From Candidatus Limnocylindria bacterium (GTDB lineage: Bacteria > Chloroflexota > Limnocylindria > P2-11E): a stretch of 62,521 nucleotides of DNA. This document shows, in pieces, positions 3,825-7,135 of the stretch. The stretch's first letter is position 1; every line of letters starts with the position of its first letter. Location: positions 1 through 62,521 of the forward strand of contig DASUCM010000009.1 of the NCBI GenBank assembly GCA_036276035.1, read 5' to 3'. A program made the position numbers and the translations under genes. The notes beneath the pieces were generated by a model. The model had not been told where the DNA came from. It saw nothing but the letters and a program-made list of their open reading frames with translations, and did no database searches.

Positions 3825-4963
3825 CGTGATGCCCGCGCGGCGCGGACCGCCTCGGCGGCCGCCTCGTCCATCGTCGCCTTCGAGATGAGCGGTGCGCCCT
3901 CGAGGAGCTTGCGGCCGGCCTCGGCCTCGGTGCCCGAGAGGCGGATGACGAGCGGGACCTTCGGCGGGTCCTTCGCGATGACGGAGAGGATCCCCTTCGC
4001 GACCTCGTCGCCACGCGTGATGCCGCCGAAGATGTTGATGAACACGCTGCGCACGCGCGGGTTCGCGAGGACGATCTCGAGCGCCGCCCGGACGACGTCC
4101 TCCTTCGCGCCGCCGCCGACGTCCAGGAAGTTCGCGGCACGTCCGCCGGCGTTGCGCACGGCGTCGAGCGTGCCCATGACCAGACCGGCGCCGTTCCCGA
4201 TGATGCCGACGTCCCCCTCGAGCTGGACGTACGAGAACCCGAGCCCGCGCGCCTTCTCCTCAGCGGCCTCGTCCGGCGCCACCTCGCGCAGCTTCGCGAG
4301 CTCGAGCTGCCGGAAGAGCGCGTTGTCATCGACGTCGAGCTTCGCGTCGCCTGCGATGACCGAGCCGTCCTCCTGGATGAACAGCGGATTGATCTCGAGC
4401 AGCGTCGCGTCGGTCTCCTCGTACGTGCGGTACAGGCGCTGCGCGATGTCGGCGACCGCGTCGCGCTGCGCCGCGTCGACGCCCGCCGCAAAGCAGAGCG
4501 CCCGCGCTTCGAACGGCAGGAGACCGAGCAGCGGGCTCGGCCAGCGCCGCGCGATCTTCTCCGGCGTCGACGCCGCGACCTCCTCGATGTCCATGCCACC
4601 CACCGTGGACAGCATCACGACCGGGCAGCGCAGGTCCCGGTCGAGCGTGATGCCGAGGTAGAGCTCCTTCGCGATCTTCGCGGCGCGCTCGACGTACACC
4701 TTCTCGACGCGCAGCCCCTTGATGTCCATCCCGAGGATGGCCTCGGCATGGGAGCGCGCCTCGGCCGGCGTCTTCGCGAGCTTGATGCCGCCGGCCTTGC
4801 CACGCCCGCCGACGTGGACCTGCGCCTTCACGACCCACGGCCCGGTACCCATGGCGCGCGCCGCCGCTTCCACCTCGGCCGGCGTCGTCGCGACGCGTCC
4901 CTCGGGGATCGCGATGCCCGCCCGCGCGAGGACCTGCTTCGCCTGGAACTCGTGGAGCTTCAC
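3821..4963 (-). CDS. sucC: succinyl-CoA synthetase beta subunit (ATP-grasp)
   Basis: 380 aa: MKLHEFQAKQVLARAGI.., VVKAQVHVGGRGKAGGIK.., INIFGGITR. Confidence 0.95.
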   Translation of the reverse strand: MKLHEFQAKQVLARAGIAIPEGRVATTPAEVEAAARAMGTGPWVVKAQVHVGGRGKAGGIKLAKTPAEARSHAEAILGMDIKGLRVEKVYVERAAKIAKELYLGITLDRDLRCPVVMLSTVGGMDIEEVAASTPEKIARRWPSPLLGLLPFEARALCFAAGVDAAQRDAVADIAQRLYRTYEETDATLLEINPLFIQEDGSVIAGDAKLDVDDNALFRQLELAKLREVAPDEAAEEKARGLGFSYVQLEGDVGIIGNGAGLVMGTLDAVRNAGGRAANFLDVGGGAKEDVVRAALEIVLANPRVRSVFINIFGGITRGDEVAKGILSVIAKDPPKVPLVIRLSGTEAEAGRKLLEGAPLISKATMDEAAAEAVRAARASR

Positions 4964-5115
4964 TGGGGATGGCGAGGATAGCCCGCGAGCGCCGGATGCA
5001 TCGCGCGACGCACGCTCGCCGTTCGTCGAACGACGGCGGGCGGGTGCGCTCGCGAGCGGTGCTGGCGGCCCTGTCCCGGCAGTCTTCGCGCATGCCGGCG
5101 ATGTGGAGGACGACG

Positions 5116-6020: not shown

Positions 6021-6638
6021 CTAGGCAGACAGGGCGCGCGCGAGCACCGCGACGCCCAGCAACACGACGATGAGGCTCCCGCCCAGCGAGGCCCAGGCGC
6101 GCGCCGAGGGGGGCAGCCGGCCGTGAAGAGCGCCTGAGATCGTTGCGAGCAGGAGCTGCCAGGCCGCGGACGCCGTGAACACGCCGAGCGCGAACGCCGG
6201 GACGCTCTGGATGGCCGTGCCTCCGAGTCCGATGGCGATCGCGACGAAGTACCCGAGCGTCGCAGGGTTCGCGGCGGTGAGGCCGGCGAAACGGAGGTAG
6301 GTGGATACGAGGTCACGTGTGGCGGCGGTCGCCGTGGGCTGCTCCGCCGCCGCCCGGCGGGAGCGGACCGCGGTCCACATCCCGATCACGACGAGCGTGA
6401 CGCCCGTGGCGAGCTGGAGCGTGCGCTCGGCTCCCGCGAGCATCGCCGACACCGCGGAGCCGAGGAGGAGCGCCGACAGGGCGTAGCCGAAGTCCACGCT
6501 CGCGGCGCCGAGCCCCGCGGCCGCCGCGGGGGCGAAGCCGCGGCGCAGGCCGGTGGTCATGATGAGCGTGGCGATCGCGCCCGGCGGCATGGCGATCGCG
6601 AGGCCCGCGAGCGCGCCGGTCGCGAACGACTCGATCAG
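6021..6638 (-). CDS. LysE-family amino-acid/metabolite exporter
   Basis: Six-TM pattern; N-terminal LIESFATGALAGLAIAMPPGAIATLIM resembles the LysE/RhtB N-terminus. The start is assigned to CTG 6638-6636 (CTGA overlap with the upstream stop) because no canonical start lies in the 28 codons upstream. See finding. Confidence 0.7.
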   Translation of the reverse strand: MIESFATGALAGLAIAMPPGAIATLIMTTGLRRGFAPAAAAGLGAASVDFGYALSALLLGSAVSAMLAGAERTLQLATGVTLVVIGMWTAVRSRRAAAEQPTATAATRDLVSTYLRFAGLTAANPATLGYFVAIAIGLGGTAIQSVPAFALGVFTASAAWQLLLATISGALHGRLPPSARAWASLGGSLIVVLLGVAVLARALSA

Positions 6639-7135
6639 AGGTGGCGCCGGCTTTCCTGCTCGATGTCGGCGATGAGGCGCCGCGCGCCCGTGATGACGAC
6701 CTCCAGGGCGTCGGCGATGGACTTGCGCGCCGCCGGCTCGAGGTCGGTCGGCAGCTCGTCCTCGTCGAGGATCTCGATCGCTCCGCCCGGTCGCACCAGC
6801 ACGTCCACGACGAGGTCGCGGTACGCGACGAGCCCCGGAGCGATCTCGGTCTGGTCCGCGATGTTCACGTAGTGGGCGAGCGTGCGGCCTTCGTTGACCC
6901 AGTGGTAGACGTTGTACGGCCGGTCGACCCAGTAGTGGGAGATCGTGGCCGTGCCCTTCGGGATGAGGATCGTGCCGGCGACGTGCCAGTCCCGGTCGAG
7001 GACGTAGCGGAGCACCGCACGCCTGCCGGATTCGAGGACGAGGACCTCGCAGACGAACTCCTCGATGGTCCCATCGAGGCGGGTCTTCCGCTCGATGACG
7101 GTTTGACGGTCCACTACGCGCCGGTAGCATGACAT
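6635..7135 (-). CDS. DUF402-domain protein (FAU-1/RNase G-E-related fold)
   Basis: MSCYRRVVDRQTVIERKTRLDG..HYWVDRPYNVYHW..YRDLVVDVLV fits DUF402. The track ORF extends to 7741 only through Arg/Asp-rich sequence antisense to the next gene. Alternative start at GTG 7114. Confidence 0.7.
   Translation of the reverse strand: MSCYRRVVDRQTVIERKTRLDGTIEEFVCEVLVLESGRRAVLRYVLDRDWHVAGTILIPKGTATISHYWVDRPYNVYHWVNEGRTLAHYVNIADQTEIAPGLVAYRDLVVDVLVRPGGAIEILDEDELPTDLEPAARKSIADALEVVITGARRLIADIEQESRRHL

Follow-up and report, generated by a model that had tools for sequence, protein, structure and literature searches.

Where does a protein begin when its gene has no ATG, GTG, or TTG at the expected place? This question is raised by a LysE-family exporter gene in a stretch of 62,521 nucleotides from an uncultured soil organism, Candidatus Limnocylindria bacterium (GenBank assembly GCA_036276035.1, contig DASUCM010000009.1), the whole of which we call the window. 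[quoted passage not shown] The sequence reads exactly as claimed, with CTG at 6638-6636 and TGA at 6637-6635, and 15 orthologues agree with a start at this place.

Anatomy of the junction

Both genes lie on the minus strand, and the features at issue are as follows.

6635..7135, minus strand: DUF402 gene, 166 amino acids, from ATG 7135 to the stop TGA 6637-6635 (Pfam PF04167, E value 1.7e-15)
6651..6657, minus strand: AGGAAAG within the DUF402 codons for EQES, the sole purine-rich stretch
6635..6638, minus strand: CTGA stop/start overlap, made up of CTG 6638-6636, the proposed LysE start, and TGA 6637-6635, the DUF402 stop
6021..6638, minus strand: coding sequence of the LysE-family exporter, 205 codons when counted from CTG, with the stop TAG at 6023-6021
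6591..6635, minus strand: LysE codons 2-16 (IESFATGALAGLAIA), the first half of the first transmembrane helix (TM1), missing from a product started at Met17
6588..6590, minus strand: internal ATG, Met17, the start chosen by gene callers, giving a product of 189 amino acids

In the minus-strand reading, the DUF402 protein ends in ...IEQESRRHL*, and the LysE frame, which is one base off that of DUF402, crosses the junction as ...GKPAPP-CTG(6638-6636)-ATC-GAG-TCG..., with CCA CCT as the codons just upstream. CTG and TGA have T and G in common, and the C of CTGA falls on the third base of the final DUF402 codon (CTC for leucine or CGC for arginine), where it is synonymous. Read from CTG, the exporter is a protein of 205 amino acids, LIESFATGALAGLAIAMPPGA. 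The nearest in-frame canonical start codon on the 3' side of CTG is ATG 6590-6588 (Met17), which lies within TM1. On the 5' side, the nearest is ATG 7130, 164 codons away, and the resulting open reading frame (ORF) of 369 amino acids (6021..7130) spans the entire DUF402 gene in the other frame. The earlier statement that the 28 codons upstream of CTG contain no ATG, GTG, or TTG is thus correct, its quoted translation being identical to ours and ATG 7130 being the first such codon. The same frame had been described as Arg/Pro/Gly junk lying inside the DUF402 gene, and it is indeed rich in these residues and without a family match.

The product and its surroundings

A Pfam scan places the product in PF01810 (LysE type translocator) with 49.3 bits against a cut-off of 25.6, the alignment running over residues 14-199, counted from CTG, and profile positions 2-190 of 193. 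Scores against TIGR00948 (lysine exporter LysE; 18.9 bits, cut-off 213.65) and TIGR00949 (RhtB-type, homoserine/threonine exporter; 16.9 bits, cut-off 183.95) fall far under the equivalog cut-offs, and so the LysE assignment holds at the family level only. The product resembles the LysE/RhtB/ArgO exporters of PF01810 in being an all-helical membrane protein of about 200 amino acids with an N-terminal helix that is broken at a P-G motif. It differs from them in scoring below the NCBIfam equivalog cut-offs and in the pairing of its gene with a DUF402 gene, which, to our knowledge, is not a feature of this family.

The AF2 model of the product is all-helical (mean pLDDT, 70.5), with helices at residues 2-16, 20-29, 35-66, 71-96, 107-122, 125-142, 146-170, and 177-204 and a break at MPP 17-19. 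According to this model, a start at Met17 would delete the helix of residues 2-16, which makes up half of TM1.

The ATG of DUF402 (7135, minus strand) is 6 bp away from ATG 7142, at which a divergent gene for a flavoprotein/ferredoxin of 675 amino acids begins. The DUF402 ATG has no Shine-Dalgarno (SD) sequence (duplex, +1.2 kcal/mol), and the mRNA of the DUF402-LysE pair is probably leaderless. In the two relatives whose contigs reach that far, the divergent flavoprotein gene also adjoins the pair. In relatives (loci L017, L019, L022, and L037), a conserved 67-amino-acid ORF and a SKI-like gene of 174-179 amino acids are found on the other strand downstream of the pair; a faint match gives the SKI-like protein a shikimate-kinase fold, and beyond its gene lie succinyl-CoA-ligase-like genes. 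The pairing of DUF402 and the exporter hints at a shared nucleotide- or metabolite-related function.

Orthologues and the recurrence of CTG

A search of 40 related genomes yielded 15 LysE orthologues, all of which have ATG, GTG, or TTG at, or 2-5 codons from, the codon homologous to the window CTG. In G001, which belongs to the same genus (71% identity), GTG stands at exactly the homologous codon (...CCG GTG ACG GAG TCC...) and forms a GTGA overlap with the stop of a DUF402 gene ending in ...ESRRYR*. The window carries C where this nearest relative has the G of its start codon. The anatomy of CTG on the stop codon exceeds chance, as evidenced by the canonical starts in the 15 orthologues and the GTGA of G001.

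A protein search recovered many full-length LysE relatives of 203-206 amino acids (about 70% identity), along with several of 187-189 amino acids that begin with MPPGAIATL, i.e., at Met17 (P0003 and similar). The latter bear out the earlier prediction that gene callers would truncate the protein at the internal Met, since these shortened products are what public collections hold. DNA was read for five of the relatives begun at Met17, and all five contigs have CTG ATC, with CTGA overlapping the stop of DUF402. Two of these contigs belong to the window species (99.5% identity) and were assembled from two sequencing runs other than that of the window, SRR32752238 and SRR34877030 being runs that contain this species; the other three represent further lineages (70-74% identity) from farmland, forest, and other samples, found in ENA, Logan, and other sources. 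The frame 5' of Met17 in the CTG contigs is open for 71-377 codons, with one far-off canonical codon or none; in L021-L023, the open frame upstream has no canonical codon anywhere. This recurrence in contigs of the same species and in three further lineages indicates that the C of CTG is no assembly error.

A search for the locus in relatives returned five loci on metagenome contigs and two on genome contigs, and most of the relatives' DNA comes from the contigs that encode the matched proteins. DUF402 lies directly 5' of LysE with a 4-nucleotide (nt) overlap in all clade members fetched. The first-pass annotation had suggested aligning orthologue N-termini and asking whether an NTGA junction is conserved. 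Every one of the 11 DUF402-LysE clade lineages with DNA has it, as GTGA in seven and CTGA in four, and the seven canonical lineages always use GTG in the overlap, never ATG.

In a protein tree built without the N-terminal residues, CTG lineages occupy four places, corresponding to four changes on the maximum-likelihood tree, and in two cases a CTG lineage is sister to a GTG lineage. A single CTG clade was rejected by the AU test (P = 0.003), and the tree requires at least two flips between G and C. These flips are synonymous in DUF402, changing CTG/CTC for leucine in one group and CGG/CGC for arginine in another.

Selection on the codons ahead of Met17

Between CTG lineages, codons 2-16 have a mean pS of 0.37 (range, 0.29-0.56) and a mean pN of 0.04 (range, 0-0.08). 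The sister pair L020/L021, in which both members have CTG, differs by four synonymous and no nonsynonymous changes in these codons and has a dS of 0.39 and an omega of 0.11 over the whole gene. Moreover, whole-gene omega is 0.32 for CTG-CTG pairs (0.11-0.46 across CTG lineages) and 0.33 for GTG-GTG pairs, and therefore selection is not relaxed in the CTG lineages. The LysE ORF is intact in all lineages. This pattern of substitution indicates that LysE codons 2-16 are under purifying selection and are translated in CTG lineages. Together with the structural model, it leads us to rule out a start at Met17, gene decay, and assembly error as main explanations.

CTGA junctions across the genome

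The genome has a GC content of 71.9%. Junctions at which a coding frame ended by TGA is followed by a coding −1 frame number 253 for GTGA, 119 for ATGA, 32 for TTGA, and 120 for CTGA, as counted with a crude GC3-based filter and without a gene finder. In 59 of the 120 CTGA cases, a canonical start lies no more than three codons downstream, mostly as an ATG right after the stop (TGATG). Among the remaining 61, 29 are free of canonical starts over the 30 codons before CTG and the 10 codons after it and resemble coding sequence until the next such start is reached, against 17 of 146 control frames (Fisher P = 7e-8). The controls were the two other frames after TGA stops; an NTAG/NTAA control was dropped because antisense shadow frames, whose commonest stop is TAG, contaminate it.

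A Pfam scan of 20 of the 29 junctions found that the domain begins before the first canonical start in 12. The genes concerned encode a MurI-like racemase, guanylate kinase (Gmk), a ROK kinase, and a HAD hydrolase; ScpA, a GlcF-like iron-sulfur protein, and two MFS transporters, one of them in the window; and a beta-lactamase-fold protein, a DUF192 protein, an APH-type kinase, and an LpxL-type acyltransferase. The transporter in the window is located as follows.

CTG 47449-47447, gene down to about 46300, minus strand: CTGA junction of an MFS transporter, with its Pfam domain from residue 12

Its first canonical start lies 57 codons 3' of CTG, and the 46 open codons 5' of CTG contain none.

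Orthologous junctions bear this pattern out. At the Gmk junction, seven genomes of the family have CTGA, six have GTGA, and one has TTGA; at the MurI junction, three genomes have CTGA. The trpA and rsmE junctions, which are both GTGA here and were picked regardless of CTG, gave no CTGA in about 25 relatives each, which suggests that CTG is tolerated at particular genes rather than scattered at random. Surveys of 400 kb each, with small counts, found 2 CTGA candidates among 56 junctions in G006, from the same family, and 1 among 57 in G028, from another family of the same class.

Four-fold degenerate third positions are 52% C, 43% G, 2% A, and 3% T, with CTC and CGC as the preferred leucine and arginine codons. 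N of NTGA occupies the third position of the final sense codon upstream, and codon bias therefore pushes it toward C. Nevertheless, N is C at no more than about 29 of about 433 junctions, roughly a ten-fold depletion, while A is enriched about ten-fold. The depletion of C fits a weak but usable start that is purged from most genes and tolerated in some.

Several further genes of this genome lack a canonical start. Dtd (G000 C4:49983, plus strand) has a CTG shortly after an upstream TGA, with GGAG 10 nt upstream; CoaX (G000 C5:5212, plus strand) reads TGAcCTG, with GGAAGG 11 nt upstream of CTG; and a DppB-like permease gene (G000 C150:3932, plus strand) reads TGAtcgCTG, its CTG being 3 nt after the stop. 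In these three, CTG stands past the stop codon, and thus CTG starts would not be confined to the 4-nt overlap. In a RuvC-like gene that follows a TGA (G000 C138:4339, plus strand; ETVLGVDPGTTG...), none of ATG, GTG, TTG, and CTG precedes the conserved DPG motif.

Coding-like frames of G000 contain an in-frame TAG in 325 cases genome-wide, TGA in 74, and TAA in 20. Recoding of TAG was considered and rejected; the excess is attributed to antisense shadow frames with high GC3, TAG being the only stop that ends in G or C.

Initiation signals and a proposed mechanism

The LysE start has no usable SD sequence. At positions −18 to −4 of CTG, the duplex with the anti-SD sequence has a free energy of −3.3 kcal/mol, compared with a mean of −2.8 kcal/mol for the coding background. 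AGGA is 15 nt from CTG, too far upstream for a normal SD sequence, and the AGGAAAG to which it belongs lies inside conserved DUF402 codons. The Met17 ATG has no SD sequence either (−2.5 kcal/mol). A scan between DUF402 and LysE found no promoter-like or terminator-like site. The RNA fold of the junction is no better than that of shuffled sequences (z = −0.25), which leaves a coupling element of the unfolding type unsupported.

Two genome-wide ways of accommodating CTG were considered and rejected. The initiator tRNA is canonical, with C1 and the three G-C pairs of the anticodon stem, and so an altered initiator tRNA is not the cause. Stronger SD sequences do not offset a weak CTG, as CTGA genes have the same mean duplex energy as GTGA genes (−4.3 kcal/mol in both).

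In infC of this genome (G000 C162, minus strand, ~4531-5100, L099), the conserved N-terminus is not preceded by any canonical start. The gene has an ATA with an 8-nt spacer behind AAGGAG, and a start on this ATA is likely, as in the autoregulated infC genes of other bacteria that use AUU or AUA. If infC does start on ATA, discrimination against weak starts is probably retained, and CUG should be a weak start.

We propose that the exporter is probably translated from CUG 6638-6636, overlapping the UGA of DUF402, and that its initiation is coupled to the termination of DUF402. DUF402 and LysE would form one operon, in which ribosomes that finish DUF402 remain bound to the mRNA and begin anew on CUG, two bases back, by termination-reinitiation at a −4 overlap. 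The near-cognate CUG would be decoded by the initiator tRNA as fMet-tRNA, initiation of LysE would depend on translation of DUF402, and the outcome would be a low exporter level tied to that of DUF402. Over evolutionary time, a codon bias favoring C may drive recurrent G-to-C flips that turn GTGA into CTGA, which would be kept in genes that tolerate weak initiation.

The first-pass annotation had offered either CTG initiation or termination-reinitiation. The conservation of NTGA and the selection on codons 2-16 support that pair of readings without separating them. We favor coupling over plain CTG initiation, because LysE lacks a usable SD sequence and has the 4-nt overlap in every lineage with DNA. 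Nevertheless, CUG may also work without reinitiation, given the other likely CTG starts that lie a few bases after a stop.

Alternative explanations

The best-surviving alternative, although an unlikely one, is translation from the adjacent ATC (6635-6633), which shares only the A of UGA (TGATC, a −1 overlap) and would leave CTG uninvolved. Every CTG lineage has ATC in second place, and in Escherichia coli, initiation from AUC is about as weak as that from CUG (10.1101/063800). However, ATC is also the second codon in six of the seven GTG lineages, and its conservation is explained by selection at the protein level. The base that differs between relatives is the N of NTG, which in the clade is only G or C. 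Also, the second codons of other CTGA genes vary, with ACC, AGC, AAC, or ACG as well as ATC, which makes CTG, and not the ATC that follows it, the common factor.

Far less probable is a start at the internal ATG (Met17, 6590-6588), which would give a protein of 189 amino acids and make the 16 codons upstream an untranslated spacer. Met17 is the first canonical start past the DUF402 stop, and public gene calls begin there. Against it, codons 2-16 change almost only synonymously, the residues they encode form the TM1 helix in the AF2 model, and the Pfam domain begins at residue 14, ahead of Met17. Moreover, besides having no SD sequence, the Met17 codon is ATC in the clade member L032, and the residue is Ile in most outgroup orthologues.

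We regard it as slightly more improbable still that the gene is a recent pseudogene made by mutation of its start codon, or that the C is an assembly error or a minor variant in the metagenome-assembled genome (MAG). A change from GTG to CTG needs only one base, and the source genome is a MAG of 83% completeness. Nevertheless, two further, independent assemblies of the window species have CTG, as do three other lineages, and decay is countered by ORFs that are intact everywhere, an omega equal to that of the GTG lineages, and a CTG sister pair that has diverged to a dS of 0.39 at an omega of 0.11.

A DUF402-LysE fusion, made by a programmed −1 frameshift before the stop or by a start at the far-upstream ATG 7130 (the 369-amino-acid ORF), is the least credible of all. 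In its favor, the LysE frame of the window runs open across all of DUF402. However, no slippery heptamer precedes the stop, where the bases differ by lineage (CAC CTC TGA versus TAC CGC TGA). The frame upstream is rich in Arg, Pro, and Gly and matches no family; in L021, it stays open for just 55 codons, and in L021-L023, it has no canonical start. Moreover, GTG lineages have a regular start codon right at the junction. The two outcomes named at the outset as refuting a CTG start, initiation at Met17 or at a far-upstream canonical codon, are therefore both unsupported, since Met17 is often Ile and L021-L023 have no canonical codon upstream.

Relation to known systems

Overlaps of −4 nt of the NTGA type (ATGA, GTGA, and TTGA) are known to be coupled by termination-reinitiation (Huber et al. 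2019, PMC6728339; review, PMC12548453). The DUF402-LysE pair resembles them in that its genes are co-directional, the start shares two bases with TGA, the overlap is kept in relatives, and, as in many coupled pairs, there is no SD sequence at a working distance. It differs in that its start is CTG, which makes it a variant of the class; surveys of NTGA overlaps and the annotations behind them omit CTG. For instance, a survey of NUGA junctions in Mycobacterium tuberculosis, which was annotation-based, has no CUG starts (10.1101/2022.06.01.494293). A literature search found no description of CTGA junctions as a class.

CUG is a recognized near-cognate start (10.1101/520783, 10.1101/063800), with 1-2% of the activity of AUG in E. 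coli reporters (10.1101/063800), and for one CTG start, in Deinococcus deserti, an N-terminal peptide has supplied proof (PMC4007540; Baudet et al. 2010). The exporter gene shares with bacterial CUG starts a single first-base mismatch to the initiator anticodon, the lack of a canonical alternative, and an expectation of weak expression. It differs from them in that the evidence here is comparative, CTG recurs across lineages of one family, and at least a dozen genes of one genome are concerned, mostly with CTG exactly on the stop codon.

Another relevant precedent is the AUU start of infC in E. coli, a conserved weak start that sets the level of expression. Like starts of this type, the LysE start appears to be a non-canonical codon kept by selection, in a genome whose infC is non-canonical too. 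In contrast to infC, no autoregulatory loop is known or implied for LysE, and the codon flips between GTG and CTG among relatives. In sum, both the CUG start and NTGA coupling were already known, while the recurrent placement of CTG on an NTGA overlap appears to be new and is backed by solid comparative genomics.

Implications

If CTG on the stop codon works as proposed, a dozen or more proteins of the genome besides this exporter are misannotated in public collections. LysE relatives would be stored there as fragments of 187-189 amino acids that lack half of TM1, and the same error would be made by any pipeline restricted to ATG, GTG, and TTG. CUGA without an SD sequence is also a natural test of whether a ribosome that has just terminated accepts a start that a free 30S subunit refuses, and the junction consequently bears on the open debate over 30S versus 70S reinitiation. 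Moreover, it exemplifies a conflict between overlapping genes, in which the third base of the upstream codon prefers C and the downstream gene needs A, G, or T.

More broadly, we lean, if only by a little, toward the idea that CUG is a regular reinitiation codon of Limnocylindria and perhaps of many high-GC prokaryotes, used at a few percent of −4 UGA overlaps and at particular genes only. Codon bias would make the C, and CTGA would persist where weak, coupled expression is acceptable or useful. If this is true, thousands of public proteins have been truncated or mis-extended by standard gene finders, and a ribosome at termination would be far less selective in its choice of start codon than a free 30S subunit.
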